Below, piece by piece: positions 1 to 59,916 of a DNA stretch of 64,000 nucleotides. Within the stretch, counting starts at the first letter, position 1. Every line of letters starts with the position of its first letter. A program made the position numbers and the translations under genes. Source of the stretch: Candidatus Saccharimonadales bacterium (GTDB lineage Bacteria; Patescibacteriota; Saccharimonadia; Saccharimonadales; UBA10212); contig DASTHW010000014.1 in assembly GCA_035717985.1 (NCBI GenBank), forward strand, positions 17,691-81,690, written 5' to 3'. Under the pieces are notes generated by a model. It searched no databases and was not told the origin of the DNA. It worked only from the letters and a program-made list of their open reading frames with translations.

Positions 1-1
1 A

Positions 2-20957: not shown

Positions 20958-21056
20958 TGATTACCAAATAATTGTACTGATAGAGAGGTGCCTCCGGCAA
21001 GCCCGCCGGCTTAAATACCGAAAGCATAAATGCTATGATTAGACCGACGATAAAAT

Positions 21057-22688: not shown

Positions 22689-22738
22689 CGCAGTAATTAT
22701 AAGTTTATATGAACCGCTAGCGTATAATTACTCGAGTA

Positions 22739-23650: not shown

Positions 23651-24468
23651 CCTCTGCGCTCAAAGCCGAATTCAAAAAACTGCTAAGCGTGCGCTCCACC
23701 TATGTGCTAATGCTGGTATTTTTGCTATTAAGTGCTTTCTTTGCCTTTTACGTTCATGGCTATAAAGATTCGCAGGCCCAGCACTTGATTCTTACCGGAC
23801 AATCACCAAAGGATCTGGCCGGCGCGGCTTTATTTGCGTCTTCTTCTATCACCCAAGTAGCCAACGTTATATCTGTCGCCGGAGCCATAATTGCCTTACT
23901 CTTGTTGGCCCATGAATATCGTTATAACACCATTATTTATACGCTAACCGCCAGCAATAGCCGCAGTAGGGTTCTGGCCGCCAAAATTGTGGCCGTACTT
24001 TGTGTAATCTTTGTTTACTGCCTGGTAGCCACAGCTATTTCGCTGGCTCTGGTCTGGGCCGGCGCCTCAGCGGCCGGCTACCCCCTGCCTCACCAGGACA
24101 TCAATTTTGTGACCTTTTTTGCCAAATGTCTCTTTTACTGCGAGGCTTTTGCCATGGCCGGGCTGGTTTTTATAACCGTTATCCGAAATCAAATCGGAGC
24201 CATAGTCGCCCTGCTGGTTTTACCCAACACTCTAGAAGGCCTGCTGAGTTTATTGCTTAAGCAAAATTCCGTCTATATGCCGTTTACCGCTTTGTCTCAA
24301 GTCATCCAAGGCCCCACCATAAGGATTGCGCATGCGCCGGCCCACCCGGCTAGGGATATGGCTACCGGTAGTCTGACGCCTGGCAAGGGCGCCCTGGTTT
24401 ACATGGCCTATTTAGTAGCCGCTTGGATTATCGCTTGGTATTTATTCCTGCGCCGCGACGCCACCTAG
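23647..24468 (+). CDS. ABC-2 type transporter permease
   Basis: Six predicted TM segments and translational coupling (ATGA) to the ATPase gene. Confidence 0.8.
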   Translation: MTSALKAEFKKLLSVRSTYVLMLVFLLLSAFFAFYVHGYKDSQAQHLILTGQSPKDLAGAALFASSSITQVANVISVAGAIIALLLLAHEYRYNTIIYTLTASNSRSRVLAAKIVAVLCVIFVYCLVATAISLALVWAGASAAGYPLPHQDINFVTFFAKCLFYCEAFAMAGLVFITVIRNQIGAIVALLVLPNTLEGLLSLLLKQNSVYMPFTALSQVIQGPTIRIAHAPAHPARDMATGSLTPGKGALVYMAYLVAAWIIAWYLFLRRDAT

Positions 24469-24525
24469 CTAGTTTGGCAGTTAGACATGCTAATGTAGTT
24501 CAGTAATAATATTACCAGCGTAAGT

Positions 24526-24599
24526 GGCGCGTTGGCCGAGGAGTTAGGCAAGGGTCTGCAAAACCCTGTACACGAGTGCGAATCTCGTACGCGCCTCCA
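24526..24599 (+). tRNA. tRNA-Cys (GCA)
   Basis: Cloverleaf with anticodon loop CTGCAAA, 3-bp D stem, encoded CCA. Confidence 0.85.
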
Positions 24600-24611
24600 G
24601 AACACAATGAA

Positions 24612-24697
24612 GGGCGAGTGGCGGAACTGGTATACGCGACGGACTTAAAATCCGTTGCCGATAAGGCTTGAGGGTTCGAGTCCCTCCTCGCCCACCA
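24612..24697 (+). tRNA. tRNA-Leu (UAA)
   Basis: Type II cloverleaf with anticodon loop CTTAAAA, long variable arm, encoded CCA. Confidence 0.9.
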
Positions 24698-24698
24698 T

Positions 24699-24730
24699 AA
24701 AAAGACCAACTCTTGCAGTTAGGTCTTTTT
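24699..24730 (+). terminator. Rho-independent terminator after the tRNA pair
   Basis: AAAAGACC...GGTCTTTTT hairpin with a T-run. Confidence 0.7.
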
Positions 24731-24786
24731 ATGTCGGCTTCTCTTTAGGAATATATTTAGGGCTGATATATAGTTAGAACTAAGTC

Positions 24787-25647
24787 ATGCTTACGCTTAT
24801 AAGTGTGTTTTTATTTGTGGCGTCCAGCGGCCTTTTGGTCTGGTATTTTTTAAAGAAAGACGGCGGCGCCAAAGAGCCAAAGGGAGCCCTGCTGGCGGCT
24901 GTCGGGTTTGGCGTTTTAGCCTCGGCGGCGGCGGCCTGGGCCGAGCTGTTTCTGCCTAAAACCAACGGCCCAGCCATAACTTTAGCCAGTCTGGCTCTAG
25001 TCAGTCTTGGTGTTGGCATAATTGAAGAGTGCGCTAAAAGTGTGCCGCTAGCACTTTTTACCAGAGGTAAAAGCTACTTCAACGAGCATACCGACGGAGT
25101 AATTTATTTTGGCATTGCCGGCTTGACCTTTGGCTTGATAGAAAATCTAGTTTACGTTTTTTTGTACCGAAACCGGCTAGGTGCCAGCGAAATGCTAGGC
25201 ATTTTGCGCCTGGTCATTTTATTTTTCTTTCATGCGGCCTCAGCCGGAATAGTGGGGTACTACTTTGCTAAGGCTAAAATCCAAAAGCAAACTCTGCTAA
25301 AACCAATTACCGCCCTGGGGATTATGGCTATAGTGCATGGGCTTTATGACTTTTTGTTTTTGTACGGCGCCTTTGCCTATCAAAAAGGCGGTTTAACATC
25401 AGATACAAGCTCGGCCTTAGTGGTCTTAGCGCTGGTGGGCGGCCTGATAATTTCGGCCCTGCTTAATACATTTTTGTTTCTATATTTTATGCGGGCTCGG
25501 CAGTGGGATGCCAGCATTGGGTTGGCGGTTGATCCTAAGCTACCGGCTCTCCAGTCTCCGCAGGCAATGCTTACTGCCCAGCCGCCAGCAGTGCAGGCTG
25601 GCTGGGCCGGCTCGGCGCCGGTGATTGTCAGTCCGGATAGGCGATAG
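24787..25647 (+). CDS. PrsW-family intramembrane protease-like protein
   Basis: Multi-TM with GIIEECAKSVPL (EExxK) and HGLYDF motifs. Confidence 0.7.
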   Translation: MLTLISVFLFVASSGLLVWYFLKKDGGAKEPKGALLAAVGFGVLASAAAAWAELFLPKTNGPAITLASLALVSLGVGIIEECAKSVPLALFTRGKSYFNEHTDGVIYFGIAGLTFGLIENLVYVFLYRNRLGASEMLGILRLVILFFFHAASAGIVGYYFAKAKIQKQTLLKPITALGIMAIVHGLYDFLFLYGAFAYQKGGLTSDTSSALVVLALVGGLIISALLNTFLFLYFMRARQWDASIGLAVDPKLPALQSPQAMLTAQPPAVQAGWAGSAPVIVSPDRR

Positions 25648-25715
25648 TGCAAAAGTCTTGGTAAAAAAAGAAATTTCGCTGATAATAAGCTTAAGCTAAA
25701 TAGAAAAGAGTTAAT

Positions 25716-26651
25716 ATGCCTCCTCAGACTCCGCCAATTTATCCCTCGGCTCAAGCGCCGCAGGTTGGTCCCCAGCCCGCCCCGGCTATGCCGCCGCCCT
25801 CGCCTGTTCCGTCACCGGCTCCGCCCGGACCAGAGCCAAGCCCAACCCCGCCTGGAGCCGCTCCAACACCAGCCCAGCCTGGACTGCCGGGCAGTCAGCC
25901 TATGCAGTTAAATCCGGCTTACGGCCACACCGGCCTAGCTACCGCCAGCCTGGTATTGGGAATTGTATCTTTGCCAGCTTCTATTTTAAGCCTGTTCACC
26001 TTGCCGATTCCGGTAACTGCTATCGTCCTGGGTTGCATTAGTTTAAAACGCAAAAAAGGTTTTGCGCTGGCCGGAATTATTTTAGGCGTAATCGGCATAA
26101 TTTTGTCCGGCGTGGTGCTGGCTGTTGGCCTTAATCTGGAAAAACAAAAGACCAATCGAACTTCGCTGAATTCTAGTACTACCGCAAACGTTAGCAGTGC
26201 CGGCATTAGCTCTACTTGCTATAGTTTTGCGCTACCGGCAGGGTTCACAAGCGGCGACGTTACCAAAAACAGCGACTGCGTCACCGTCCTGCAAAAGCAA
26301 GACGGCACCAACGACCTGGCCATTACCTCTACTAACTTGACCCAAAATGTATCTACGGCCGATCAAGACGCCTATCTTAAAGCTGTAATTGACAGCCTGC
26401 AGTCTCAAGAGCAGGGCAAACTTACCCTTAGTAATAGAAAGTACATTAATCTAGATGGCGTGCGGGCCTACGAGGCTACCGGCGCCGAAAGTCAGGGTAA
26501 ATATACTTACGGCGGGATCATTGCCGCCCTAGCGCCTAAAGACTACATGTCTGTTTCCGGTTTAAAGTTACGGGCCTTTCTAATTGCTTTTGATTCATCT
26601 ACCAACCAAGATACACTTGATAAAGTTGCCAGCTCATGGCATTGGCAGTAG
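25716..26651 (+). CDS. Hypothetical membrane protein (Pro-rich N-terminus, DUF4190-like TM pair, extracytoplasmic domain)
   Basis: PPxP-rich first 70 aa, two TM helices with a GIILGVIGIILSG pattern, about 170-aa C-terminal domain. Confidence 0.6.
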   Translation: MPPQTPPIYPSAQAPQVGPQPAPAMPPPSPVPSPAPPGPEPSPTPPGAAPTPAQPGLPGSQPMQLNPAYGHTGLATASLVLGIVSLPASILSLFTLPIPVTAIVLGCISLKRKKGFALAGIILGVIGIILSGVVLAVGLNLEKQKTNRTSLNSSTTANVSSAGISSTCYSFALPAGFTSGDVTKNSDCVTVLQKQDGTNDLAITSTNLTQNVSTADQDAYLKAVIDSLQSQEQGKLTLSNRKYINLDGVRAYEATGAESQGKYTYGGIIAALAPKDYMSVSGLKLRAFLIAFDSSTNQDTLDKVASSWHWQ

Positions 26652-26660
26652 AGTAGCAAT

Positions 26661-26954
26661 ATGGACGATTCCCACCCGCATGTAGTTCAGGCCCACCATC
26701 ACGGGCTAGTGGCCGGTACAATTATTGGCTCGGTAGCCGTAACTCTTTTTTTGGCTGTTGCCGCCGTGGTAGCCAGACCAAATTTGCTGACTCATCCGCT
26801 CGATTTAACCTCTGATATTTCAGTTAAATCATCGAGTAATTCAAACCAGGCTTTAGGGTCGGCCGCCAGTGCCAGCCAGAGCCAATTTACTGGCGGACGA
26901 GGTCTGGCCGCCGGCTCTGCCGCTCAAAGCGCCGTGGTATTTTCCGGCCGCTAA
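26661..26954 (+). CDS. Hypothetical small membrane protein
   Basis: 97 aa with one TM helix. Immediately follows the previous gene. Confidence 0.45.
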   Translation: MDDSHPHVVQAHHHGLVAGTIIGSVAVTLFLAVAAVVARPNLLTHPLDLTSDISVKSSSNSNQALGSAASASQSQFTGGRGLAAGSAAQSAVVFSGR

Positions 26955-26968
26955 TTAATCTCTGTATT

Positions 26969-27706
26969 TTAAGCCGCCAGAGTTTGCTTGGCGGTAACTG
27001 GGTCGTCGGTAAAGATACGGTCTACGCCGATTTCGGCCATCCGGCGGACATCTTCCGGCGCGTTGACCGTATAAACATTAACTTCAAAACCATTATCATG
27101 AGCCGATTTAACCAATTCTGGCGAGGCAAATTTTAGATCAGGATTAATGGCCACGGCGCCCAGGCGGCGGCCTAGATCTACGGCCGGCTGAGGGCCGCCT
27201 AGCTCTTGCCACTGCTGGCCGTCCAGCAAAACGGCAATGTCAAGTTCAGGCATTATCTGCTTAAACTTCTCAAGCTCATCGTGCCTAAAAGAAGAAACTA
27301 TAAAATCAGCTGGCCGCCAGCCGCTAGCTAGGTATCTTTTAACAATTGTGCTTACCGGCTCAGCTGTATTGGCGCCTTTTAACTCAATATTTACTTTGGT
27401 GCGCTGGCCGTCTTTACTGTGTCGATCTACTAAATCTAAAACTTCTTCCAGCGTCGGGATTTGGTAAAACTTGCCGTCAGTAAAGCCGTCGTGAACGTTA
27501 AAGGTGAAACTATTGACCAAGCCGTGGGCCGCCCCGCGGGTAATTTGATCTAGCTCATCATCATGAAAAATTATTACTTCGCCGGTTTTAGCAAGCTCAG
27601 TATCAAACTCAATCATCGGCACCTTATTATTTAGCGCCAACTCAAAAGAAGGTAGTGTGTTCTGGGGTAGTAAGGCTCTAGCGCCGCGGTGGCCGATTAT
27701 TTCCAT
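26969..27706 (-). CDS. Glycerophosphodiester phosphodiesterase
   Basis: IIGHRGA...PQNTLPSFE...EFD GDPD motifs. ATG at 27706 is preferred over the upstream TTG at 27730. Confidence 0.85.
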   Translation of the reverse strand: MEIIGHRGARALLPQNTLPSFELALNNKVPMIEFDTELAKTGEVIIFHDDELDQITRGAAHGLVNSFTFNVHDGFTDGKFYQIPTLEEVLDLVDRHSKDGQRTKVNIELKGANTAEPVSTIVKRYLASGWRPADFIVSSFRHDELEKFKQIMPELDIAVLLDGQQWQELGGPQPAVDLGRRLGAVAINPDLKFASPELVKSAHDNGFEVNVYTVNAPEDVRRMAEIGVDRIFTDDPVTAKQTLAA

Positions 27707-27793
27707 AAAATTTGCTTTTTTAACTTGCAAGCATATTGTATAAAAGCTACTCTATAAAAGTAAAATAAAAGCGGTGGGCTATAGGAGGGACCA

Positions 27794-27949
27794 ATGAGTT
27801 GGAGCTGGAGCTCACCAATTGCTTTGGGGTTATTCTTACTGATGTGCGGAGGTACGGCAGTGCTAGTCGGAATTGGTATTTCGGCCGCCGCTTCCAGCGC
27901 AAGATGGGTAGCTGAACTGCCGGTTGTCGGTAGCCGCCGCCGGCGCTAA
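27794..27949 (+). CDS. Small membrane protein (51 aa), absent from the ORF track
   Basis: ATG preceded by ATAGGAGGGACCA (strong SD), one TM helix, RRRR C-terminus. Followed by a clean terminator. Confidence 0.55.
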   Translation: MSWSWSSPIALGLFLLMCGGTAVLVGIGISAAASSARWVAELPVVGSRRRR

Positions 27950-27973
27950 GCCTTAAAATCAAAATAAAAATTT

Positions 27974-28001
27974 CCCCGGCCCATGAGCCGGGGATTTTTT
28001 T
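27974..28001 (+). terminator. Rho-independent terminator
   Basis: CCCCGGC-CCATGA-GCCGGGG followed by ATTTTTTT. Confidence 0.75.
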
Positions 28002-28088
28002 ATTGCATATCAGATGGTGGTGTAAAACATCTAACTGCTCTTATCTTGCCGCCGAATATAAATTATTTAAACAAAGGGGGATTTTGAA

Positions 28089-28961
28089 ATGGTAAAACAG
28101 GCAATGGGTAGAACCGAGATAAAGCAGTCTGAGCAGTTAAGTACTAGGCCGGGTAAGCAGGTAGAGATGAACTCTAAGCCGGCCTCAAAAGGTAAAAATT
28201 ATAAACCAGCCGGCAAGCTGAAGGGCAAAGTGGCCATAATCACCGGCGGCGATAGCGGCATTGGCCGGGCGGTGGCCATAGCCTTTGCTCAAGAAGGCGC
28301 CGATGTGACGATTATTTTTCTAAATGAAGAAAAAGATGCCGCCATTGCTAAAAGCATGGTGGAGAATGAGGGCGCTAGGTGCCTTGCCATAAAAGGCGAT
28401 ATCGGCGATAAAGATTTTTGCCAAATAGCCGTCAATAAAACAGTTAATGAATTTGGCAGGCTGGATATTTTGGTCAATAACGCCGGCGAACAGCACCCCA
28501 AAGGCAAGCCGGAAGATATCAGTGCCGAGCAGTTAGAACGGACTTTTAGAACTAATGTTTTTGGTATGTTTTATCTGACGCAGGCGGCCCTAAAGCATAT
28601 CGGCAAGGGCGGCGCGGTTATTAACACCACATCCGTGACTGCTTATAAGGGCCACCCCACTTTGCTAGATTACTCTTCAAGTAAAGGCGCGATTTTAGCC
28701 TATAGCCGCACACTGTCGCAAATGCTGGCTGAGCGGGGGATAAGGGTCAACGCTGTGGCGCCTGGGCCCATTTGGACACCGCTAATCCCGTCAACCTTTC
28801 CTAAAGACGAGGTAAAAGATTTTGGTAAAAACACGGCCCTTGGCCGGCCCGGCCAACCGGAAGAGCTGGCGCCGGCTTATGTCTTTTTGGCTAGTGATGA
28901 TTCCAGCTATATGACCGGCCAAACTATGCATATAAACGGCGGCACGATAGTCAACGGCTAG
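28089..28961 (+). CDS. SDR-family oxidoreductase (YghA/YdaD general-stress type)
   Basis: TGGDSGIGRA cofactor motif, NNAG, and YxxxK (YSSSKGA). Confidence 0.85.
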   Translation: MVKQAMGRTEIKQSEQLSTRPGKQVEMNSKPASKGKNYKPAGKLKGKVAIITGGDSGIGRAVAIAFAQEGADVTIIFLNEEKDAAIAKSMVENEGARCLAIKGDIGDKDFCQIAVNKTVNEFGRLDILVNNAGEQHPKGKPEDISAEQLERTFRTNVFGMFYLTQAALKHIGKGGAVINTTSVTAYKGHPTLLDYSSSKGAILAYSRTLSQMLAERGIRVNAVAPGPIWTPLIPSTFPKDEVKDFGKNTALGRPGQPEELAPAYVFLASDDSSYMTGQTMHINGGTIVNG

Positions 28962-28970
28962 ATATAAAAA

Positions 28971-29047
28971 TGGTGGGATTGGAGGGACTCGAACCCCCGA
29001 CTTTCTCGGTGTAAACGAGACGCTCTAGCCAACTGAGCTACAATCCC
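28971..29047 (-). tRNA. tRNA-Val (UAC)
   Basis: Reverse complement gives a cloverleaf with anticodon loop TTTACAC and encoded CCA. Confidence 0.9.
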
Positions 29048-29073
29048 GACAGAGGGAAATTATACCATAATAA

Positions 29074-29775
29074 ATGGTATACTATATACGCATGAGGTAT
29101 AAAACGGCAAATCACAAACCCATAGTCTGGTCACCGGAATTTTCATACTGTATCGGTCTCATTGCTACAGACGGCTGTCTGTCCAGCGACAATCGTCACA
29201 TAGACTTTACTTCGAAGGACTATGAGCTTGCTGAAATATTCCGGAATATCATTAAGCCGAGTGCGATTATCGGCAAAAAAAGAAATGGCCAGGGCGCCTT
29301 TGCATATCGAGTGCAATTTAGTGATGTTTCTCTGTACGATTTTCTTTTAAAGTTGGGTTTGACCCCCAGAAAGAGTAAAACCTTGGGGCGCTTGTTGGTT
29401 CCCGATGAATTTTATGCTGATTTTTTACGAGGATGCTGGGACGGTGACGGGTCAAGTAATGGTTACTGGGATAGGCGTTGGCGATCAAGCTTTATGTATT
29501 ATATGTCCCTAGCTTCAGCTAGCACCGCTTTTCTTGAGTGGATTAGATATAAAAATACTGAATTAATTGAAATTTCTGCCCCCGCCATCAAGGAGTATCT
29601 TAAGAACGATAGAACGTATTATGTTTTAAGTTACGCCAAGAAAGATTCTCGAAAACTTTTTGAGTTTATTTATTATGCCGAGGGATTACCATTTTTAAAG
29701 AGAAAGCATAATAAAATGCTAAAATTTTTTATGACAGATCCAGCTTCTGCGAGGGTGAGTGGTGAAATTAGGTAA
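29074..29775 (+). CDS. LAGLIDADG-family homing endonuclease (double-motif)
   Basis: Two LAGLIDADG-type motifs: YCIGLIATDGCL and DFLRGCWDGDGSS. AT-rich. The last 23 nt overlap tRNA-Leu(GAG). Confidence 0.8.
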   Translation: MVYYIRMRYKTANHKPIVWSPEFSYCIGLIATDGCLSSDNRHIDFTSKDYELAEIFRNIIKPSAIIGKKRNGQGAFAYRVQFSDVSLYDFLLKLGLTPRKSKTLGRLLVPDEFYADFLRGCWDGDGSSNGYWDRRWRSSFMYYMSLASASTAFLEWIRYKNTELIEISAPAIKEYLKNDRTYYVLSYAKKDSRKLFEFIYYAEGLPFLKRKHNKMLKFFMTDPASARVSGEIR

Positions 29776-29838
29776 ACACGCCAGATTGAGGTTCTGGTGC
29801 CGCAAGGCTTGGAGGTTCAAGTCCTCTCTCACCCACCA
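29753..29838 (+). tRNA. tRNA-Leu (GAG)
   Basis: Type II cloverleaf with acceptor GGGTGAG/CTCACCC, anticodon loop TTGAGGT, encoded CCA. Confidence 0.85.
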
Positions 29839-29844
29839 ATTAAT

Positions 29845-30279
29845 ATGAATTTGTCTGAATTAAAAGATTTGCCCAGCCCGTTTTACCGGGTTACCGCCAA
29901 GGCGGTTATTTTTGACGATCAAGACCAGCTGTTGGTCGGCAAGGGCGAAGAGGCTGATGATAGCTGGGAAATGCCGGGCGGCGGCCTGGAGCACGATGAG
30001 TCAATTGAGGACTGCATTAGGCGCGAGCTGGCCGAGGAGTTGGGTGCGCAGGTAGCCGAAGTGGGTGAGCTTATGTTTGTTTACCGCGGCCGGAGCGTGC
30101 ATGGCTGGATGATTTGCCGGCTGGCCTTTGCGGTAAAGCTCAAAAATTTTGATTTTAAGTTCGGCGACATGAAAGAAGCCAAGTTTGTAACACGCGAAGA
30201 ATTTATGGCTCTAGATTTTGCCGCCGACGAAGGCACTGTCAAAACCAAAGTCGACCAGCTTTGGCCCGCCACAGCTTGA
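29845..30279 (+). CDS. NUDIX hydrolase
   Basis: Nudix box GGGLEHDESIEDCIRRELAEELG. The listed start 29797 lies inside the tRNA, so ATG 29845 is used. Confidence 0.85.
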   Translation: MNLSELKDLPSPFYRVTAKAVIFDDQDQLLVGKGEEADDSWEMPGGGLEHDESIEDCIRRELAEELGAQVAEVGELMFVYRGRSVHGWMICRLAFAVKLKNFDFKFGDMKEAKFVTREEFMALDFAADEGTVKTKVDQLWPATA

Positions 30280-30318
30280 ACAAACAGATGTAATCTCGTA
30301 AAATAAGAGACTGCTGTT

Positions 30319-30394
30319 GGCGCTTTAGCTCAGCTGGTAGAGCAGAGGCCTGAAGAGCCTTGTGTCCCCAGTTCGAGTCTGGGAGGCGCCACCA
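30319..30394 (+). tRNA. tRNA-Phe (GAA)
   Basis: Canonical cloverleaf with anticodon loop CTGAAGA and encoded CCA. Confidence 0.92.
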
Positions 30395-30593
30395 CGCAAG
30401 ACCTAATTTCGGCCCCGCCCGAAATTTCGGCAATCAAGTGGCCAAACTTTTGCAGGGCCTAGCATTGTTCTTGCTTACCAATTTTATAAAAATCCGCTTT
30501 GCAAATTTTTGTAAAATTGAGAGGAGGAGCATAGCATCAAGGTGAAGCTTTTGCTGACGAGGCAAAACGAACTAGATGCGTAGGCTCCGACGA

Positions 30594-30619
30594 GCGGGTG
30601 TAGCTCAGTTGTTTAGAGT
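30594..30619 (+). pseudogene. Orphan 5' fragment of tRNA-Gly (acceptor 5' strand plus D arm)
   Basis: 25 of 26 nt identical to 30771-30796 of the intact tRNA-Gly. No matching 3' half follows. Confidence 0.7.
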
Positions 30620-30770
30620 GAAAAATGCCGGTGGCATTTTGCAAGGGAATCTTCCGATGGCAACTGGTTGCCAGTCGTGAAGTTCCGGGGTCGCGGAACG
30701 TGACCTTACTTGCCAGGCCAAGGAAGCGCTACCCAAAATTGAAAGGTAACCTTTACAATCAGAATATTAT

Positions 30771-30847
30771 GCGGGTGTAGCTCAGTTGTTTAGAGCGCTT
30801 CCTTGCCAAGGAAGAGGCCGTGAGTTAGAGTCTCATCACCCGCACCA
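30771..30847 (+). tRNA. tRNA-Gly (GCC) with atypical D and T loops
   Basis: Cloverleaf with anticodon loop TTGCCAA and encoded CCA. D loop AGTTGTTTA lacks GG; T loop is TTAGAGT (A instead of C56). Confidence 0.8.
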
Positions 30848-50074: not shown

Positions 50075-50151
50075 TGGTGGAGATGGGGGGAGTTGAACCC
50101 CCGACCTCCGCAATGCGAATGCGGCGCTCTAGCCAACTGAGCTACATCCCC
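50075..50151 (-). tRNA. tRNA-Ala (CGC)
   Basis: Cloverleaf with anticodon loop TTCGCAT, G3:U70 identity pair, encoded CCA. Confidence 0.9.
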
Positions 50152-50198
50152 AACCTGTTAAATATATACCATGAACTTTATGTAGGATACCCTTACGT

Positions 50199-50215
50199 AT
50201 ACCCCACTGGGGTAT
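50199..50215 (+). promoter_or_regulatory. CsoR-type operator palindrome
   Basis: ATACCCC-ACT-GGGGTAT lies 15 nt upstream of the csoR-like start. Matches the GC-tract inverted repeats bound by CsoR-family repressors. Confidence 0.65.
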
Positions 50216-50229
50216 GTTAAAATATATTT

Positions 50230-50526
50230 ATGAATCAACGTTATGGGTACATAAAACATAAAAAGGATCTGCTAAGAAGGTTGGCCCGTATCGAGGGTCA
50301 GGTAAAGGGGGTAGCCCGAATGGTTGGTGAAGAACGCTACTGCATCGATATACTTACTCAAATTAGTGCTATCGAAATCGCGCTCCGGCCCGTAGGGCTT
50401 AAGGTTTTGGATGAACATATTAGAAGTTGTGTAACTGAAGCCCTTTCAGTCGACGATTCAAAAAAAGCCGAAATAAAAACAGAAGAACTGTTAAGGGCTG
50501 TTGAAAGGTTTGCCAAGATTAAGTGA
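50230..50526 (+). CDS. csoR: CsoR/RcnR-family metal-sensing transcriptional repressor
   Basis: RLARIEGQVKGVARMV...RYCIDILTQ...HIRSCV (x-C-H-C ligand pattern typical of Cu-sensing CsoR). Confidence 0.85.
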   Translation: MNQRYGYIKHKKDLLRRLARIEGQVKGVARMVGEERYCIDILTQISAIEIALRPVGLKVLDEHIRSCVTEALSVDDSKKAEIKTEELLRAVERFAKIK

Positions 50527-50960
50527 TTATGTTCAGCCTTGATACTCTTACCCGCCACGCCATAACCCATACTAGACATTGTCTGACGGGTTGCGGCATT
50601 GGCGAGGTTGCCGGTATGGCCATTGGTCAAAATTTATCAAACATCGTGCAAACTATCCTAGCTGTGGTATTGGCCTTTTTAGTTGGCTATGGCCTAACTT
50701 TTCGGGGTGCCAAGAAAAATCAAATGAGCACTAAAGATGCTGTGAAACTGGCTCTAGCCGTAGATACCGTCTCTATTGTCTCGATGGAAATTATTGATAA
50801 TGTTAGCGAGTGGCTAATCCCCGGTGCTATTAATGCCCGGCTTAGCCAAGCTTTATTTTGGTGGAGTTTGGCCGTTAGTCTGGCTATCGCCTTTATTGTT
50901 ACCGTGCCGGTTAACCGGTTTGTAATGAGTAAAGGGATTGGCCATCACGCCCACCACTAG
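50523..50960 (+). CDS. DUF4396-like membrane protein
   Basis: HCLTGCGIGEV N-terminal motif, 3-4 TM, His-rich C-terminus. 4-nt overlap with csoR. Confidence 0.7.
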   Translation: MIMFSLDTLTRHAITHTRHCLTGCGIGEVAGMAIGQNLSNIVQTILAVVLAFLVGYGLTFRGAKKNQMSTKDAVKLALAVDTVSIVSMEIIDNVSEWLIPGAINARLSQALFWWSLAVSLAIAFIVTVPVNRFVMSKGIGHHAHH

Positions 50961-51081
50961 ATTAACAGATGAAATTTGAGTATAATTTTTATCTGTCACT
51001 ATAACCAAACCTCAAAACTAGGCAGGTTGTTTGAAGTTTTGAGAGCTACGTCGTAGCCTTTAACAATTTTGATTCTGATAC

Positions 51082-51158
<77 letters not shown>

Positions 51159-54414: not shown

Positions 54415-57400
54415 ATGAAACGTTATAATCCGCAGGAGCTTGAGCCCAAGTGGCAAAAAATTTGGGCAGAGTCGGGCATTTATAAGACTGACATGAGCCG
54501 GGTATCAGATAAGTTTTATACCATCCCGATGCTACCGTACCCGTCTGGTGATCTGCATATCGGCCACTGGTATAACTATGTTGGCGCTGACAGTGTAGCC
54601 CGCTGGCGGCGCCTGCTAGGCCAAAATGTTTTTACGGCTTTAGGGTTTGATGCTTTTGGTCTGCCGGCAGAAAACGCCGCCATTAAGCGCGGCCTCCAGC
54701 CGGCTAAATGGACGAGAGGCAATATTAAATCAATGAAAGAGCAGATTGCTAAAATTGGCGCCAGCTATGACTGGGACCACAGCTTAATTACCTGCGACCC
54801 CGAATATTACCGCTGGAACCAATGGCTATTTTTAAAACTATATGAAAAAGGTCTGGCCTACCGCAAGAAGGCGATGGTCAACTGGTGCCCTAAAGACCAG
54901 ACTGTGCTGGCTAACGAGCAGGTGGTTGGCGAAAACAATGTTTGCGAGCGCTGCGGTACGCCGGTTATCCAAAAAACGCTACCGCAGTGGTTCTTCAAAA
55001 TTACCGACTATGCCGACCGCCTACTGGACGACCTGGATGAAGTTAATTGGCCTCAGCGGGTTAAGACCATGCAGGAGAACTGGATTGGGCGAAGCCGCGG
55101 GGCACTTATTAAATTTGCAGTAGAAGACTCAAAAGAGAATTTTATTGAGGTATTCACTACTCGGCCAGATACTATTTATGGTGCCACCTTCATGGTCGTA
55201 GCGCCTGAGCACAAAATACTTAACAAGTTAAGTATCTCCAAGGAAGTTGAAAAATATATTGAGCAGGCCAAGCGAAAAACCGAGCTGGAGCGCAAAGCCG
55301 GCGAGAAGGATAAAACTGGCGTCTTTAGCGGCCTTTATGCCATCAACCCGGCTAACAAAAAGAAAATTCCAATCTGGGTAGCCGATTATGTACTGATGAG
55401 CTACGGCACTGGCGCCATCATGGCCGTACCGGCCCACGACGAGCGTGATCACGAATTTGCTACGAAATTTGACCTGCCGATTGAGCCGGTTATCATTCAG
55501 GATTTTGGCGAACCTTTGCCCGATGAGCATTATGTTGAAGGAGTAGTGGTTATTCCTTATGACCCCAAGACCAAAAAATACCTGGCTCTGGGCGGCTGGA
55601 ATCAGGGTATTGGTTTGGTCGGCGGCGGCCGTGAGAGTGCGGAAAACCTAAAGCAGTGCGCCGCCCGTGAACTTGAAGAAGAGGCCGGCATTGCCAGCTA
55701 TGAGGCATTAATATCGCTGGGAGACCCAGTTTATTCTCATTACCATAACGATTTAAAGAAAATTAACCGCCGCTCGCTGGGGCAGGGTTACTTGGTAGTT
55801 ACCGATAGCCAAGCTAAAACTAAGAAACCGGCGCTGGAAGCCCACGAGAAGTTTAAGGCCGAGTGGATGGATATGGCCGATATCCGGGCCGGCATTACCA
55901 AACTTGGCGGCGGCACCCAGCACTGGTTAGAGATGACTGAGCGAGCTGAACGAGCCGCGGCCGATTATGAGGCAGGGCGTATTTACCAGCCGGCGCCCTA
56001 CAGCGGCGAGGGCGTTTTGATTAATTCTGATAAGTATGACGGCTTAAGTTCGGCAGAGGCTCGGGAAAAAATTGTCACTGATTTGTCCGGCGCTGGAGAT
56101 GATGAGCCGGTATTTGAACAGACCACTGGCTCCAGTGCGGTGAAAAAGGGTCAGCCGTTTGTGGAGCGCCAAGCTATTACAGCTATTGTTAAACACTGGT
56201 CCGAGGACAAGTACATCGGCCTGAAATGGAAAACGGTGGACTGGGAAACGTTGATTACCGGCGGTATCGAGAAAGGTCAAACGGCCGAGCAGGCGGCCAT
56301 TGCCGAAATTCGCGAGGAAACCGGCTACCAGAACCCTAAGCTGGTCAGAGTGCTTGGCAAAAACCATGCCAAATTCTTTCATGTGCCCAAAAATGAAAAT
56401 AGATTTGCGCACTTTACTTGCCTTTTGTTTGAGCTGGCTGACGGCGAGCGCGAGCAGGTAAGCGCTAAGGAACAAAAAAACCACGAGGTGGTCTGGCTGA
56501 CGCCGGCTCAGATGGAAAAGTTCGATTTGCCACAGTCGCACCGTCATATTTGGGACCAAATAAGGAAAGGCTCTGGCGGCCTGGCCCGCGCTCAAACCAA
56601 TTACCGTCTGCGCGACTGGCTGATTAGCCGCCAACGATATTGGGGTACACCTATCCCCATAATTTACTGCGATAAATGCGGCATCCAGCCGGTAAGCGAA
56701 AGCGACCTGCCGGTGATACTGCCTGAAGATGTGGAGTTTGAGCTATCTGGCCAGTCGCCGCTTGTCAACCGGCCGGATTTTGTTAATACTAAATGCCCCA
56801 ACTGTGGCGGGCCAGCAAAGCGCGAGACCGACACCATGGACACTTTCATGGATTCCAGCTGGTATTTCCTGCGCTATATCGACAATAAGAATGATAAAGC
56901 GGCTTTTGATACCAAGCTTATCAACCAGTGGGCGCCGGTCGATCACTATCTAGGCGGTATTGAGCACGCCATCTTGCATCTACTTTATGCCCGCTTTATG
57001 GTTAAGTTTCTGCATGATTATCACGGTCTAACTTTTACCGAGCCGTTTAAAAGACTGACCAACCAAGGCATTATTTTAGGCCCAGACGGCCAAAAGATGA
57101 GCAAGTCCCGCGGCAATGTTGTCAGCCCCGATGAGCAGGTAAAGAGCTACGGCGCTGACAGCTTGAGACTCTACATGCTGTTTATGGGTCCGTATGACCA
57201 AGGCGGTCCTTATAGTCTTGGCGGCATAGCCGGAACGCGCCGGTTTTTGGATAGAGTTTGGACACTTTTAGGGGAATACTTAGAGTCACCGGCGGAACCT
57301 ATAGCCGATATGGACGAGGTAGCTATAACGGCGGCGGTCCACCGGGCTATCAAGAAAGTGACCAATGATATCGAGGCACTTAACTTTAATACGGCTATTG

Positions 57401-57807
57401 CCGGCTTGATGAGCCTGACAAATGAGCTATACAAATTTAAAGTTAAACCAGGGCTGGCGCAGACACCGGCTTGGCGGTTTGCCTTTGACAGCCTGGTCCA
57501 GTTACTCGCGCCTATGGCGCCGCACATCACCGAGGAACTGTGGCAGGCCCTGGGCCATGAAAGCTCAGTCCATATCTCGGAGTGGCCGGCCTGGGATGAG
57601 GCGCTAGTAAGTGACGAGATGGTAACCATCGCCGTCCAGGTAAATGGCAAAGTCCGAGGCGAGATAGTGATTTCTAAATCTGCTGAAGCTGGTGAAGTGA
57701 TTGCTATGGCTAAAGAGGACGATAAAGTCGCCAAACAGCTGGCCGGTAAAAAAATCAAAAAAGAAATCTACGTTCCCGGACGGCTGGTTAGCCTAGTTGT
57801 TGGCTAA
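54415..57807 (+). CDS. leuS: Leucine--tRNA ligase with two inserted NUDIX domains (1130 aa)
   Basis: PSGDLHIGH, TTRPDTIYGATFMVVAPEH, GTGAIMAVPAHDERDHEF, YRLRDWLISRQRYWGTPIP and KMSKS in canonical order. Two extra blocks carry Nudix boxes (see findings). Confidence 0.95.
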   Translation: MKRYNPQELEPKWQKIWAESGIYKTDMSRVSDKFYTIPMLPYPSGDLHIGHWYNYVGADSVARWRRLLGQNVFTALGFDAFGLPAENAAIKRGLQPAKWTRGNIKSMKEQIAKIGASYDWDHSLITCDPEYYRWNQWLFLKLYEKGLAYRKKAMVNWCPKDQTVLANEQVVGENNVCERCGTPVIQKTLPQWFFKITDYADRLLDDLDEVNWPQRVKTMQENWIGRSRGALIKFAVEDSKENFIEVFTTRPDTIYGATFMVVAPEHKILNKLSISKEVEKYIEQAKRKTELERKAGEKDKTGVFSGLYAINPANKKKIPIWVADYVLMSYGTGAIMAVPAHDERDHEFATKFDLPIEPVIIQDFGEPLPDEHYVEGVVVIPYDPKTKKYLALGGWNQGIGLVGGGRESAENLKQCAARELEEEAGIASYEALISLGDPVYSHYHNDLKKINRRSLGQGYLVVTDSQAKTKKPALEAHEKFKAEWMDMADIRAGITKLGGGTQHWLEMTERAERAAADYEAGRIYQPAPYSGEGVLINSDKYDGLSSAEAREKIVTDLSGAGDDEPVFEQTTGSSAVKKGQPFVERQAITAIVKHWSEDKYIGLKWKTVDWETLITGGIEKGQTAEQAAIAEIREETGYQNPKLVRVLGKNHAKFFHVPKNENRFAHFTCLLFELADGEREQVSAKEQKNHEVVWLTPAQMEKFDLPQSHRHIWDQIRKGSGGLARAQTNYRLRDWLISRQRYWGTPIPIIYCDKCGIQPVSESDLPVILPEDVEFELSGQSPLVNRPDFVNTKCPNCGGPAKRETDTMDTFMDSSWYFLRYIDNKNDKAAFDTKLINQWAPVDHYLGGIEHAILHLLYARFMVKFLHDYHGLTFTEPFKRLTNQGIILGPDGQKMSKSRGNVVSPDEQVKSYGADSLRLYMLFMGPYDQGGPYSLGGIAGTRRFLDRVWTLLGEYLESPAEPIADMDEVAITAAVHRAIKKVTNDIEALNFNTAIAGLMSLTNELYKFKVKPGLAQTPAWRFAFDSLVQLLAPMAPHITEELWQALGHESSVHISEWPAWDEALVSDEMVTIAVQVNGKVRGEIVISKSAEAGEVIAMAKEDDKVAKQLAGKKIKKEIYVPGRLVSLVVG

Positions 57808-58187: not shown

Positions 58188-58688
58188 ATGGCCAGTAACC
58201 GCCATCTTGGCCGGATTGTGGCCCTGCAGACGCTGTACGAGCAGGATTTTAGGCAGGAACTAGCCGATAACGGCTTTGATCTAGAGGAAGTTCTAGCCCG
58301 CAATATTGCCCGTTATGCCGACACCATCGACGATAAAGAGTTCATTACCAAGCTGGTGCACGGCGTCGACAGCCACACCAAAGAAGTTGACGATCTAATC
58401 CGGCCGGTCGCCCCAGAGTGGCCAATCGAGCAAATTGCCCGCATGGACCGCATTATCCTGCGCATTGGTGCTTACGAGCTAATTTGGGACAAAACGGTGC
58501 CGCCCAAAGTTGTCATCAACGAGGCGGTCGAGCTAGCAAAGGCTTTTGGCGGCGAGAATTCTTCTAAATTCATTAACGGCGTGCTTGGCACTATCTTGCG
58601 GGCCCAAGAAGCCTCGGCCGCCAAACCAGCTAAAGCCAAACCGTCCGCTAAAAGTGCCAAGAAGGCTAAAGATCTTAAGGAAGACTAG
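58188..58688 (+). CDS. nusB: Transcription antitermination factor NusB, with Lys/Ala-rich tail
   Basis: [13 protein letters not shown]...[25 protein letters not shown] pattern. Confidence 0.88.
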
Positions 58689-59195
58689 ATGAAACGACCC
58701 AAACCGATACGCGGTTTTAGAAAATTTGTCAGCGAGCACCGCCCGGCAATTGCCGAAGTGGTCCGCGAGCCAACTGCCGGCGGCATTATATTTAGGCGGG
58801 GTAAGGCCGGCGTTGAGATTTTACTTATAGCCGATTCCAAGCACCGCTGGACTATCCCTAAAGGTCACATCGAAGAGGGCGAGACACCCCGCCAAACCGC
58901 CCAGCGCGAAATTGAAGAGGAGACCGGCCTAGCCGAAATGAAAATGATGGATTGGCTGGGTAAAATTAATTTTCGCTACCGCCGCGACAACACCCTAGTG
59001 CTAATGACCACCGAGATTTTTTTGGTGGAGGCCCGTGGTGACACTAATAAAATCAAACCGCAGGAATGGATGGCCGACATTGCCTGGCTAGCCGCCAAAG
59101 ACGCCTTAGATAAAATTGAGTATGAAGACATTGGCAAACTAATCTTGCTGGCACTGAAGAAAATCAGAGAATCAGCTGTAGAAAAAAGAGGATAA
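58689..59195 (+). CDS. NUDIX hydrolase
   Basis: Nudix box KGHIEEGETPRQTAQREIEEETGL. Confidence 0.88.
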   Translation: MKRPKPIRGFRKFVSEHRPAIAEVVREPTAGGIIFRRGKAGVEILLIADSKHRWTIPKGHIEEGETPRQTAQREIEEETGLAEMKMMDWLGKINFRYRRDNTLVLMTTEIFLVEARGDTNKIKPQEWMADIAWLAAKDALDKIEYEDIGKLILLALKKIRESAVEKRG

Positions 59196-59208: not shown

Positions 59209-59916
59209 ATGGATGTATCAAAGTATCAGACTTTTGCTGACCAGCATTTTGGCGGCTTTAGTGATATTGGTCTTTTAATCACCGCCTTTACTCACCGAAG
59301 CTATATTAATGAGCATAAAAAAACGGCCTCTGAACATAATGAGCGCTTAGAATTTTTAGGCGACGCCGTTTTGGAGTTGGTGGTGACTGAGCATCTTTAT
59401 AACAACTATAAAGAGCCAGAAGGCGTTTTAACTAACTGGCGAAGTGCGCTGGTGCGGACGGAAAGCATCAGTGCCGCTGCCGATAGAGAAGGTTTTGAAT
59501 CTCTTCTTAGGCTGTCGCGTGGTGAGCGGCGGGCGGCCTCACCGCGGGCCCGCGAACAAATTTTAGCCAACTCTTACGAGGCGGTGATTGGCGCTCTTTA
59601 TTTAGACAAAGGTTATGAGGCCGCCCGGGAGTTTATTAGCCGGACGCTTCTGCCGGTCTTGCCGCAAATTTTAGAAACCGGAGCCTGGCTGGATCCTAAA
59701 TCCCGCCTGCAGGAGCTGGTTCAAAGCCATGAAGATGCTACACCGGTCTATAAAGTATTGAGCGAGGAAGGGCCGGACCATGACAAAACCTTTGTGGTCG
59801 GCGTTTTTGTAAGCAATGATTTGAAGGGGGAGGGGTCGGGGCCGAGTAAGCAGGCCGCGCAGGTCGCCGCCGCCTCTACCGCCCTCCAAGCTTACGTGAC
59901 GCACCAACCAAACTAA
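59209..59916 (+). CDS. rnc: Ribonuclease III
   Basis: Signature ERLEFLGDAVL and a C-terminal dsRBD (GPDHDKTFVVGV...GSGPSKQAAQVAAA). Confidence 0.95.
   Translation: MDVSKYQTFADQHFGGFSDIGLLITAFTHRSYINEHKKTASEHNERLEFLGDAVLELVVTEHLYNNYKEPEGVLTNWRSALVRTESISAAADREGFESLLRLSRGERRAASPRAREQILANSYEAVIGALYLDKGYEAAREFISRTLLPVLPQILETGAWLDPKSRLQELVQSHEDATPVYKVLSEEGPDHDKTFVVGVFVSNDLKGEGSGPSKQAAQVAAASTALQAYVTHQPN

Follow-up and report, generated by a model that had tools for sequence, protein, structure and literature searches.

A leucyl-tRNA synthetase (LeuRS) of a Candidatus Saccharimonadales (Patescibacteria/CPR) bacterium, encoded within a 64,000-nucleotide stretch of DNA that we call the window, is a complete bacterial-type enzyme whose CP1 editing domain has received, in surface loops of its C-terminal end, two in-frame insertions, the autonomous Nudix-fold modules I1 and I2. 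From the conservation of the Nudix box and the constraint on the modules, we consider it probable that both are active Nudix pyrophosphohydrolases tethered to the synthetase, which would cleave a nucleotide-diphosphate-X compound in its vicinity. The insertion of small hydrolase domains into LeuRS is common across Patescibacteria, and the enzyme of the window is a rare double version.

Host enzyme and insertion points

The leuS reading frame has no stop or frameshift in its translation, and its product scores 1027 bits against TIGR00396 (leuS_bact, cut-off 548) with the inserts in place; the top PDB match is the T. thermophilus (Tth) LeuRS 1h3n (E=2.9e-251). PF00133 and positions 1-144 of the PF13603 profile cover residues 1-360, and the PF13603 editing-domain match to the full protein amounts to 220 bits. 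In the alignment to Tth LeuRS, no part of the protein corresponds to the leucine-specific domain (Tth 582-636). On the practical side, the sole NCBI annotation of this product is 'class I tRNA ligase family protein'. The first-pass annotation of this DNA had described a 1130-aa frame, the LeuRS landmarks, all found where it had placed them, and a first block with a perfect Nudix box, and these observations stand; the box of I1 agrees with GX5EX7REUXEEXGU at every consensus position (G404, E410, R418, E419, E422, E423 and G425).

Table 1. Features of leuS and of its Nudix neighbour; nucleotides are numbered along the window, residues along the leuS product
Feature	Nucleotides	Residues	Strand	Basis or remark
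leuS ORF, stop codon included	54415..57807	1130 aa, intact	+	product HET9850541.1
N-terminal catalytic half and CP1 editing-domain core	54415..55494	1-360	+	aligns to Tth LeuRS 1-372
HIGH	54556-54567	48-51		
TTRPDT, editing-site threonine-rich motif	55156-55173	248-253		
PAHDERD, with conserved editing Asp	55429-55449	339-345		
KFDLPIEPVI		351-360		
I1, divergent-subtype Nudix domain at the ancestral site 1	55495..55998	361-528	+	PF00293, AF2 model
I1 Nudix box GGRESAENLKQCAARELEEEAGI	55624-55692			
G segment YSGEGVLINSDKYDGLSSAEAREKIVTDLSG, last strand-helix unit of CP1	55999..56091	529-559	+	aligns to Tth LeuRS 377-405
GEGVLINSDKYDGL		531-544		
REKIVTDLSG		550-559		
I2, majority Q-type Nudix domain at the rare site 2	56092..56574	560-720	+	PF00293, AF2, anchor distances
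I2 Nudix box GGIEKGQTAEQAAIAEIREETGY	56260-56328			
C-terminal catalytic half, anticodon-binding domain and C-terminal domain	56575..57804	721-1130	+	aligns to Tth LeuRS 408-581 and 637-876; PF08264
RDWLISRQRYWG	56611-56646			
TNYRLRDWLISRQRYWG		728-744		
KMSKS	57094-57108	894-898		
Free-standing Nudix gene of the conserved leuS-nusB-nudix-rnc-rpsP block	58689..59195	168 aa	+	PF00293, E=1.6e-18

Against PF00293 the whole protein gives two separate stretches (E=1.2e-25), and each insert alone is significant, I1 with 43.2 bits (E=4.8e-11) and I2 with 55.9 bits (E=6e-15) against a gathering score of 21.1, a match far beyond chance. Alignment to Tth LeuRS places the two blocks, which the first-pass annotation had taken for Nudix insertions, as additions at Tth 372/377 and 405/408 and not as ordinary segments of the synthetase. 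When I1 and I2, together 329 extra residues, are removed in silico, a protein of 801 aa is left, which matches TIGR00396 in one stretch (1-842 of 843, 1048 bits) and PF13603 contiguously (positions 1-184 of 185). Because what remains after excision matches bacterial LeuRS over its whole length, both are clean insertions; because it restores the contiguous PF13603 match, I1 lies within CP1 and I2 at its C-terminal edge, at the boundary with the linker that returns to the catalytic core. I2 ends 6 aa upstream of RDWLISRQRYWG. Isolated between the two modules is the G segment, whose GEGVLINS...DLSG stretch is the final part of the editing domain, so that CP1 does not end at KFDLPIEPVI as had been supposed.

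Autonomy of the two Nudix folds, a question raised at the first pass, is supported by AlphaFold modelling. In the full-length model I2 has Nudix topology, with pLDDT of 92-97 and the box helix at 624-636. I1, which ends in a pair of helices, reached pLDDT of just 27-51 in the first full-length model, made from a shallow alignment; the alignment and not disorder is responsible for these values, since modelling of I1 alone from a curated module alignment gave pLDDT of 92.9 and pTM of 0.88. Foldseek comparison of I1 with PDB yielded 527 matches at E<=1e-3, and all of the 50 listed are Nudix proteins.

Mis-assembly of the double-insert gene is unlikely, because a Logan assembly of SRR25158356, produced with a second assembler, is identical over 9393 nt (100% identity), and because each junction recurs in other organisms, N-I1-G in P0001 and P0003, and G-I2-C in L082 (55% identity), which has no I1 and is the only other place where the rare site-2 location was seen. 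It is hardly credible that the gene is an artefact at all, whether a pseudogene, a chimera assembled from the leuS genes of two strains, or a gene invaded by an intein or mobile element, even though the protein clusters alone and no second protein with the full I1-G-I2 (site 2) arrangement was found among 160 related loci and the best 150 of 333 library representatives. A chimera would require two in-frame joins at non-homologous points; moreover, the ORF is unbroken, all LeuRS motifs are intact, and both inserts have confident predicted folds. Hint, intein or endonuclease Pfam families do not match this LeuRS even at E<=1, in agreement with the first-pass remark that intein features are lacking; I1 starts with IQDF and is followed by Y, and I2 starts with AGDD and is followed by G. 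At the DNA level, the only flanking repeats at the inserts are short and at chance level, and there is no clear shift in composition. An intein or a mobile element was rejected, having neither domains, nor flanking repeats, nor mobility genes to support it.

The module family and its distribution

I1 and I2 represent two subtypes within a single Nudix family associated with LeuRS and are 17% identical in the module alignment; recent tandem duplication of one Nudix domain was rejected, as BLASTP detects no similarity between them (E=2.9). The family has signatures of its own (KHWSEDKY, K..NR and W), and conservation at its particular K..NR, E and W positions is complete or reaches at least 90%. 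The I1 subtype is found at the same site in P0001, P0003, P0018, P0019 and P0114.

The count of box conservation covers 193 modules embedded in LeuRS, in an alignment to the family HMM. E16 and E20 are present in every one of these modules, G22 in 192 and E19 in 175 (91%); the residues most important for catalysis in MutT, E53 and E57, are equivalent to box positions 16 and 20. The box of I2 keeps G616, E631, E634, E635 and G637 and departs from the consensus at Q622 and A630. The first-pass annotation had located this box correctly, with Q at position 7 and without R at position 15, but had called it degenerate, whereas it is the commonest form in the family: Q occupies position 7 in 112 of the modules (58%) and R occupies position 15 in 73, being missing in 62%, so the I2 box is not a decayed copy. 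Substitutions at these two positions, in I2 and in most of the family, could signify altered chemistry or a binding-only role. They favor a view of the modules as non-catalytic, either nucleotide sensors or regulators (responding, for instance, to ppGpp, ADP-ribose or Ap4A), or additions with a structural or tRNA-binding role that would adjust aminoacylation or editing and might make up for the missing leucine-specific domain; the location of the inserts in mobile CP1, beside hinge strands, would suit such roles too. We find this unlikely in view of the conservation of E16, E19 and E20, the perfect catalytic box of I1, the existence of free-standing members that have no partner to regulate, and the fact that close relatives function without any insert.

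Complete free-standing homologues, proteins of about 160-190 aa, were found in L128 (positions 3986-4474), P0085, P0091, P0095, P0099, P0123 and P0126, and their contexts, in those examined, are unrelated. The strongest relatives of the family are solely LeuRS-embedded or free-standing, with no fusions to other proteins, and the same is true of all strong relatives of I2 that were checked. The free-standing Nudix gene downstream of leuS in the window belongs, judging by its sequence, to another Nudix family: its product is 27% identical to I2, and its counterparts in related genomes score 36-45 bits on the insert-family HMM. Insert-free leuS genes sit in the same synteny, this neighbour included, and copying of the inserts from it is not supported on these grounds. 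Nor was there a trace of fusion or fission, as no free-standing family member was found adjoining an insert-free leuS in the loci examined.

A related module is encoded in at least 245 species-level genomes of Patescibacteria. All 80 loci examined are LeuRS with one to three modules at fixed sites, and all long matches checked contain PF13603; LeuRS proteins of at least 1050 aa with Nudix modules, a size class pointed to in the first-pass annotation, are found in other CPR genomes. Sites were assigned by anchor distances, with architectures read from genomic loci, and number four or more (site 0, site 1, site 2 and the CP2/Zn region). Site-1 modules of relatives begin exactly 18 aa past PxHD, ahead of the last strand-helix unit of CP1, and this site is kept across Saccharimonadia, Paceibacteria and Berkelbacteria. 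Some CPR LeuRS also contain alpha/beta-hydrolase or HAD inserts. The homologues retrieved from the protein database were fragments of 702 aa or less, many entries being fragmentary or labelled partial.

Among close LeuRS bodies, P0003 has I1 only, P0002 and P0004 have I2 at site 1, L082 has I2 at site 2 only, and P0063, with a body 72% identical to that of the window, has no insert. Lineages that are closely related have thus gained, lost and duplicated modules and moved them among four or more sites of LeuRS, which means that LeuRS itself can do without them, and their quick loss in close relatives shows that module function is not essential. Such behavior could also be expected of neutral or selfish accretion, in which the tolerant loops of CPR LeuRS would receive domains, spread by leuS recombination and intragenic duplication, with no LeuRS-tied benefit or with just the co-expression of a housekeeping enzyme. 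Presence, absence and position of the modules do vary among LeuRS proteins 53-75% identical; the divergence of module and body is nearly uncorrelated (r=0.21); I2 shares 77% identity with the module that L001 has at site 1, exceeding the 66-69% of the respective LeuRS bodies; and the alpha/beta-hydrolase and HAD domains inserted in CPR LeuRS are unrelated to Nudix. We nonetheless regard accretion as very unlikely. Over 250 orthologue pairs the mean identity is 0.49 for the module and 0.535 for the LeuRS body, which indicates that the modules are under purifying selection of the strength that acts on an essential enzyme; the catalytic glutamates are invariant, site 1 is preserved in all three groups named above, the inserts come without flanking repeats, intein motifs or mobility genes, and none of the top family relatives is fused elsewhere. 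Repeated intragenic duplication could be the source of the specificity for LeuRS without functional coupling.

Predicted activity and candidate substrates

Clean insertion, confident folds, invariant box glutamates, free-standing homologues and constraint as on LeuRS all point towards activity of the modules, and we infer catalysis chiefly because E16 and E20 are invariant and the sequence is constrained. I1 and I2 would then be Mg2+/Mn2+-dependent Nudix pyrophosphohydrolases, with independent active sites tethered to LeuRS; if so, LeuRS is a three- or four-site enzyme, in which one or two Nudix sites join the synthetic and the editing site. The weakest step in this proposal is the role that the modules would most likely have, the hydrolysis of a nucleotide-diphosphate-X compound near the synthetase. 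Synthetases form Ap4A/Np4N as side products, and these dinucleoside polyphosphates or related nucleotide by-products would be the leading candidates, though Ap4A as such, a link already offered as speculation at the first pass, is still a guess; being of different subtypes, I1 and I2 may differ in substrate.

ApnA hydrolases have as a signature a tyrosine that follows the Nudix box at a distance of 16-18 residues. At +17 after the box, 84 of 167 modules have F and 77 have Y (161 aromatic), and the corresponding residues are Y443 (+17) in I1 and F654/F655 (+16/+17) in I2. Among characterised structures, those that come closest by profile and by fold are RppH, with the Ap4A-bound 7sp3 among its entries, the Ap4A hydrolases 1f3y, 3i7u, 1kt9 and 4ijx, Dcp2/AvrM14, and NudB. 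Together with the aromatic residue, this likeness gives a weak hint as to substrate; the PDB likenesses of I1 are generic (TM 0.5-0.65, identity 12-20%) and have no power to tell substrates apart. Neither insert reaches the cut-off of any curated NCBIfam Nudix equivalog, those for RppH, MutT, NudB and NudE included, and I1 alone matches no NCBIfam model at E<=1e-3.

Resemblance to RppH and to decapping enzymes also brings up an RNA-directed Nudix of the RppH/Dcp2/NudC kind, for which LeuRS, a tRNA-binding protein, would be a tRNA platform, and which would remove a 5'-pyrophosphate or an NAD/Np4A cap from tRNA-Leu or other RNAs. E. coli RppH prevails in the Foldseek list of I1 (TMq up to 0.63) after the uncharacterised 2azw, the top match (1.9e-8), and 2b0v; the family profile matches Dcp2, the AvrM14 decapping effector and NUDT12; and the weak, below-cut-off NCBIfam matches of I2 are RppH models. 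We hold this explanation to be quite unlikely. The best RppH-model scores of the inserts, 19-26 bits, are far under cut-offs of 116-259, the free-standing members have no RNA-binding partner domain, and RppH also hydrolyses Ap4A (7sp3), so that the likeness fits hydrolysis of nucleotides by tethered modules equally well. In LeuRS structures, furthermore, CP1 contacts the 3' CCA end of tRNA and not its 5' end.

A closer tie between modules and synthetase seems doubtful to us, one in which the modules would be functionally coupled to LeuRS, destroying a product of its own chemistry or acting on bound RNA, and would define a new class of multi-hydrolase LeuRS. Their substrates would in that case be Ap4A/Np4N made from Leu-AMP and NTP, or an RNA 5' end or cap; next to the synthetic site and the editing site of CP1, the enzyme would possess between one and three Nudix sites, joined in certain lineages by alpha/beta-hydrolase or HAD sites, and the specificities of I1 and I2 would be distinct.

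Few enzymes have been studied as thoroughly as the aminoacyl-tRNA synthetases, in which an additional domain is usually the sign of a new function. In a large bacterial radiation (Saccharimonadia, Paceibacteria and Berkelbacteria), conserved and apparently catalytic Nudix domains are found in the editing domain of LeuRS. If the modules are indeed active, a new enzymatic activity has been added to LeuRS, which would offer a direct handle on the way in which organisms of minimal metabolism keep house with nucleotides or with dinucleotides of the Ap4A type. The LeuRS of the window has both subtypes in one chain and is a convenient single construct for the two of them; the insertion sites, being clean and movable, also reveal permissive CP1 loops that could be of use in protein engineering.

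Comparison with known systems

With the inserts excised, the protein is a full-length member of the family of canonical LeuRS (T. thermophilus 1h3n/2byt, E. coli 4aq7), from which the intact protein differs by 329 more residues, which form two putative catalytic domains in CP1, and by the lack of the leucine-specific domain. The inserts themselves have the Nudix box and the alpha/beta/alpha sandwich in common with RppH/NudH and Ap4A hydrolases, and the aromatic residue about 17 positions after the box may be a further, weak likeness, but identity to these proteins is 12-20%, their equivalog cut-offs are not reached, and the family signatures of the inserts are their own.

Enzymes with comparable second catalytic domains have been described. 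NadM-Nudix, mentioned in PMC7824862, is a bifunctional enzyme that unites a Nudix domain with a nucleotidyltransferase of the HIGH superfamily and is, like LeuRS of the window, a HIGH-class Rossmann enzyme with a second catalytic domain; its Nudix domain, however, is fused onto an NMN adenylyltransferase and not inserted into the editing domain of a synthetase, so that both partner and chemistry are different. IleRS with a GNAT domain (NCBIfam NF040702) is likewise a class Ia synthetase with a second catalytic domain of different chemistry. Closer to the present case is IleRS of SR1, interrupted by Nudix and other small hydrolase/phosphatase-type domains (Kantor et al. 2013, mBio, PMC3812714), and LeuRS of the window fits the same pattern, a CPR class Ia synthetase interrupted in frame by a Nudix domain. 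CPR LeuRS proteins that combine Nudix with alpha/beta-hydrolase or HAD inserts resemble it as well. The SR1 protein is IleRS and not LeuRS, and in the paper it takes up one sentence, which does not analyse sites, family, conservation or function. Apart from that sentence, we found no description of a Nudix-bearing synthetase of this kind, LeuRS included, in the literature searched. At the first pass no described LeuRS architecture of this kind was known; the sentence of 2013 is a precedent in an IleRS, and single-insert LeuRS are widespread in Patescibacteria.

These single-module enzymes, exemplified by HSX17785.1 (P0082, 964 aa) and by L001 from a Candidatus Saccharimonadales MAG, are the nearest counterparts of LeuRS of the window. 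No paper describing them was found, although the proteins are present in public databases. Host enzyme, Nudix family and CP1 region are the same, and their loci have the neighbours leuS-nusB-nudix-rnc, as in the window. Single-module LeuRS, however, has its one module at site 1, whereas LeuRS of the window has the divergent I1 at site 1 and, in addition, the common subtype at site 2.

A LeuRS with two Nudix inserts

The leuS product of the window scores 1027 bits on TIGR00396, the bacterial LeuRS equivalog (cut-off 548), and its closest solved structure is T. thermophilus LeuRS (Tth; E=2.9e-251). The protein keeps HIGH, KMSKS, PAHDERD and the TTRPDT motif of the editing site intact. Unlike the Thermus enzyme, the window LeuRS lacks the leucine-specific domain (Tth 582-636); aa 891-894 (region aa ~891-898, nt 57085-57110) join Tth 581 and 637 directly, just before KMSKS.

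Two blocks interrupt this body, insert 1 (I1, aa 361-528) and insert 2 (I2, aa 560-720), separated by the G segment (aa 529-559). The peptide landmarks and Nudix boxes of the first-pass annotation lie where it had placed them, and its assignment of both blocks to NUDIX holds: PF00293 matches the whole protein in two stretches (E=1.2e-25), and the blocks scanned alone give E=4.8e-11 (I1) and E=6e-15 (I2), both exceeding the gathering score of 21.1 bits. The presence of two Nudix blocks, far beyond chance, is confirmed. When aa 361-528 and 560-720 were deleted in silico, the 801-aa remainder gave one unbroken match to TIGR00396 (1-842 of 843, 1048 bits) and another to PF13603, the profile of the editing domain (1-184 of 185). 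These contiguous matches and the Tth alignment indicate that I1 splits the editing domain, CP1, before its last strand-helix unit, which is the G segment. I2 lies at the C-terminal border of CP1 and ends 6 aa ahead of RDWLISRQRYWG. The earlier wording, which put the blocks at the 'end of CP1' and around a 'post-CP1 linker', is corrected by the same alignment and excision. The view that the blocks are not inteins agrees with the Pfam scan of the protein, which shows no intein, Hint or endonuclease domain; the window DNA has no meaningful flanking repeats or composition breaks at the inserts.

In the AlphaFold2 model of full-length LeuRS, body included (mean pLDDT 82.9, pTM 0.72), I2 adopts the classic Nudix topology (aa 563-720, pLDDT 92-97), and I1 reaches a pLDDT of only 27-51, because few alignment rows contain its subtype. 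When I1 is modelled alone from trimmed modules in a curated alignment, it attains pLDDT 92.9 and pTM 0.88, and forms a Nudix sandwich plus two C-terminal helices, so that each block can be modelled as an autonomous fold.

Mis-assembly had been raised as a doubt, and it is very unlikely to account for the double-insert gene. A chimera would require two in-frame joins at points without shared homology, and every junction is found again in a different organism: with N and C as the LeuRS parts before and after the inserted region, the N-I1-G-C arrangement recurs in the related proteins P0001 and P0003, and N-G-I2-C in the related locus L082, to which window LeuRS aa 525-1130 can be aligned without a break (55% identity). 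Two contigs encode exactly this protein of 1130 aa; one of them, assembled by Logan from run SRR25158356, agrees with the window at 100% identity across 9393 nt. Domain matches, excision, folds and recurring junctions together establish that the architecture proposed in the first pass is real and correct.

Within the window, leuS belongs to a conserved gene block, leuS-nusB-nudix-rnc-rpsP-khpA. The free-standing Nudix gene of this block is, judged by sequence, of another Nudix family than the inserts. Insert-free leuS genes (loci L163 and L164) adjoin the same block, Nudix gene included, so this gene and the LeuRS inserts are independent of each other.

Features of the window, of its LeuRS, and of related loci (L) and proteins (P)
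Feature	Location or handle	Strand	Description
leuS ORF	window 54415..57807	+	1130 aa, uninterrupted
Nudix box, I1	window 55624-55692
Nudix box, I2	window 56260-56328
nusB	window 58188-58688
Free-standing Nudix gene	window 58689-59195	+	168 aa, separate from LeuRS inserts
rnc	window 59209-59916
Nine tRNA genes	window 20873-30844 and 50078-51155		loose cluster at 28.9-30.8 kb
LeuRS segment	aa 1-371		Tth 1-372 (structure-match alignment)
LeuRS segment	aa 529-557		Tth 377-405 (structure-match alignment)
LeuRS segment	aa 721-891		Tth 408-581 (structure-match alignment)
LeuRS segment	aa 894-1129		Tth 637-876 (structure-match alignment)
Related LeuRS	P0002, P0004		body identity 75%; I2-type at site 1
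Related LeuRS	P0063		body identity 72%; no insert
Related LeuRS	P0003		body identity 71%; I1 only
Related LeuRS	L001		body identity 66%; I2-type at site 1
Related LeuRS	P0001		body identity 62%; I1 only
Related LeuRS	L082		body identity ~53%; I2-type at site 2 only
Modules at site 0 (between catalytic core and CP1)	L018, L028, P0079, P0080		one or two further modules, up to three Nudix in total
Tandem modules at site 1	P0160
Module in CP2/Zn region	P0114, P0172, P0187
Alpha/beta serine-hydrolase (PF06821/PF00561) or HAD (PF13419)	L018:1170-5753, L028:5110-9783, L016:5302-9279, L078:4420-7794, L064:4252-8013, L056:4957-8397; P0121		in frame, alongside 1-3 Nudix modules
Free-standing family members	L128:3986-4474	+	complete, 160-190 aa
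Free-standing family members	P0085, P0091, P0095, P0099, P0123, P0126; L162:5001-5483		complete, 160-190 aa
Broken-up leuS calls	P0061		473 aa; 1,226,308-nt Candidatus Saccharibacteria contig
Broken-up leuS calls	L164:7202-9662; L040:4960-7834; L038:686-4491; L031:5205-8787

One Nudix family with two subtypes

BLASTP finds no similarity between I1 and I2; both align within one family that is marked by signatures of its own: K..NR, a Glu downstream of it and a Trp that never varies. When 193 modules embedded in LeuRS are aligned by HMM, E16 and E20 of the Nudix box are present in 193/193 each, G22 in 192/193 and E19 in 175/193; at position 7, 112 modules have Q and 72 have E, and only 73 have R at position 15. 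The box of I2 had been called degenerate; its Q7 and non-R15 differences stand, yet by these counts it is the majority type of the family, and the perfect box of I1 represents the less common, canonical type. The subtype of I1, recognized by GGGR..., S.Y.N.LK..NR[RK]S and GG..HW[LF]E helices, is rare (seen in P0001, P0003, P0018, P0019 and P0114).

An exhaustive phmmer search of 1.84 billion cluster representatives with I2 yielded no more than 333 matches at E<=1e-3. Of the best 150 of these 333, ~100 show LeuRS features, and ~40 are short (<230 aa) and have none; all seven long matches scanned with Pfam (7/7) are LeuRS. Several short relatives are confirmed as complete free-standing proteins, with up to 57% identity to I2 among the members tabulated (P0085). 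Their genes lie in unrelated neighbourhoods, for example with gyrA, which the L128 gene adjoins, and a methyltransferase, or with hypothetical genes. These proteins may be donors of the LeuRS inserts or may be derived from them.

Spread, loss and movement of the modules in Patescibacteria

Scanning one genome per GTDB species, we found at least 245 loci that encode relatives of the module, and 80/80 loci kept are Patescibacteria-type (Saccharimonadia, many Paceibacteria/Parcubacteria groups, Berkelbacteria). The search for other long LeuRS was productive: leuS ORFs at related loci are intact and encode 914-1559 aa. A single module of ~165 aa at site 1 is the usual arrangement. Site 1 is the ancestral position inside CP1, held by I1 in the window; I2 occupies site 2, a rare position at the CP1/linker boundary. 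The site-1 module starts exactly 18 aa past PxHD in every case with the motif found, and ends 35-45 aa, mostly 35 or 39, ahead of RDW..SRQRYWG, and the PxHD-to-RDW spacing is ~221 aa in single-module LeuRS versus 77-79 aa in insert-free LeuRS. Some CPR LeuRS also hold inserted alpha/beta serine-hydrolase (PF06821) or HAD (PF13419) domains, and, with Nudix inserts added, reach 1528-1558 aa. LeuRS looks like a hot spot for insertion of small hydrolase domains.

Loci L003, L026, L055, L056 and L061 carry typical Patescibacteria-type Nudix-LeuRS under the record title 'uncultured Gammaproteobacteria bacterium', a single 1.34-Mb contig included; the taxon named in these titles is probably wrong. 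In several Saccharibacteria/CPR, leuS is called as 2-3 consecutive or overlapping ORFs, or as the N-terminal half only, which could be due to frameshift errors in long-read MAGs or to truly split LeuRS. The LeuRS of Aquifex is split.

The LeuRS bodies closest to that of the window show every possible insert state. I2 is 77% identical to the L001 module, above the identity between the two bodies. Over 250 pairs of single-module LeuRS, module identity is 0.49 versus 0.535 for the bodies, and the two are barely correlated (r=0.21); such close means with so low a correlation may be read as the outcome of strong purifying selection acting on the module, together with its exchange, loss and relocation among leuS alleles. 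The combination of I1, G segment and I2 at site 2 is unique to the window among all sequences examined, including the best 150 of the 333 I2 matches. The simplest origin would be the gain of an L001-like or L082-like module at site 2 by a P0003-type gene, or the gain of I1 by an L082-type gene.

Putative function and relation to known synthetases

The window gene encodes an intact LeuRS and two autonomous Nudix folds with conserved metal-binding glutamates, under constraint. I1 and I2 are probably both active Nudix pyrophosphohydrolases tethered to CP1, and are presumably unnecessary for aminoacylation, because close relatives exist without them. In a Foldseek search of PDB with I1, Nudix proteins make up 50/50 matches listed, in the order 2azw (uncharacterised; E=1.9e-8, TMq 0.65), 2b0v, then E. 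coli RppH, NUDT15, Dcp2, NudB and Ap4A hydrolases; the family profile run against PDB sequences gives a similar list (2azw, AvrM14, lupin Ap4A hydrolase, NudB, Dcp2). RppH and Ap4A hydrolases are the nearest characterised relatives of the modules, and both I1 and I2 score below the cut-offs of all NCBIfam Nudix equivalogs. Ap4A-type dinucleotides are made by synthetases. Taken with these relatives and with an aromatic residue 17 residues past the Nudix box (Y443 in I1), this is compatible with dinucleoside polyphosphates as a candidate substrate. This is the weakest step of the argument, as the evidence does not discriminate between substrates, and the modules might instead, though less probably, be RNA-end-directed enzymes. 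A role as a non-catalytic sensor or structural add-on is also unlikely, as is neutral accretion of the inserts; the constraint on the glutamates counts against both readings, and the existence of close relatives without inserts against the first of them. Functional coupling of the modules to LeuRS, as an additional catalytic site, seems to us rather unlikely.

Nudix-LeuRS sequences are public but under-annotated. The NCBI entry for the window protein, HET9850541.1, is named only 'class I tRNA ligase family protein [Candidatus Saccharimonadales bacterium]' despite its LeuRS equivalog score, and the entries of many relatives read 'partial' or 'hypothetical'; automatic naming seems to suffer from the inserts. 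For IleRS bearing a GNAT domain, NCBIfam offers an exception model (NF040702); it offers none for a LeuRS that bears Nudix. The full-text literature open without subscription yielded no description of such a LeuRS, and the sole precedent found there is one sentence in Kantor et al. 2013 (PMC3812714) on an SR1 IleRS interrupted by Nudix and by further small domains of hydrolase or phosphatase type. The LeuRS-Nudix association in Patescibacteria is widespread, conserved and essentially unstudied, and the window LeuRS is not a unique oddity but a rare double-subtype example of it. Accessory catalytic domains on synthetases, and CPR class Ia synthetases interrupted by hydrolase domains, are already-known kinds of arrangement; of both, the window LeuRS is a new variant.
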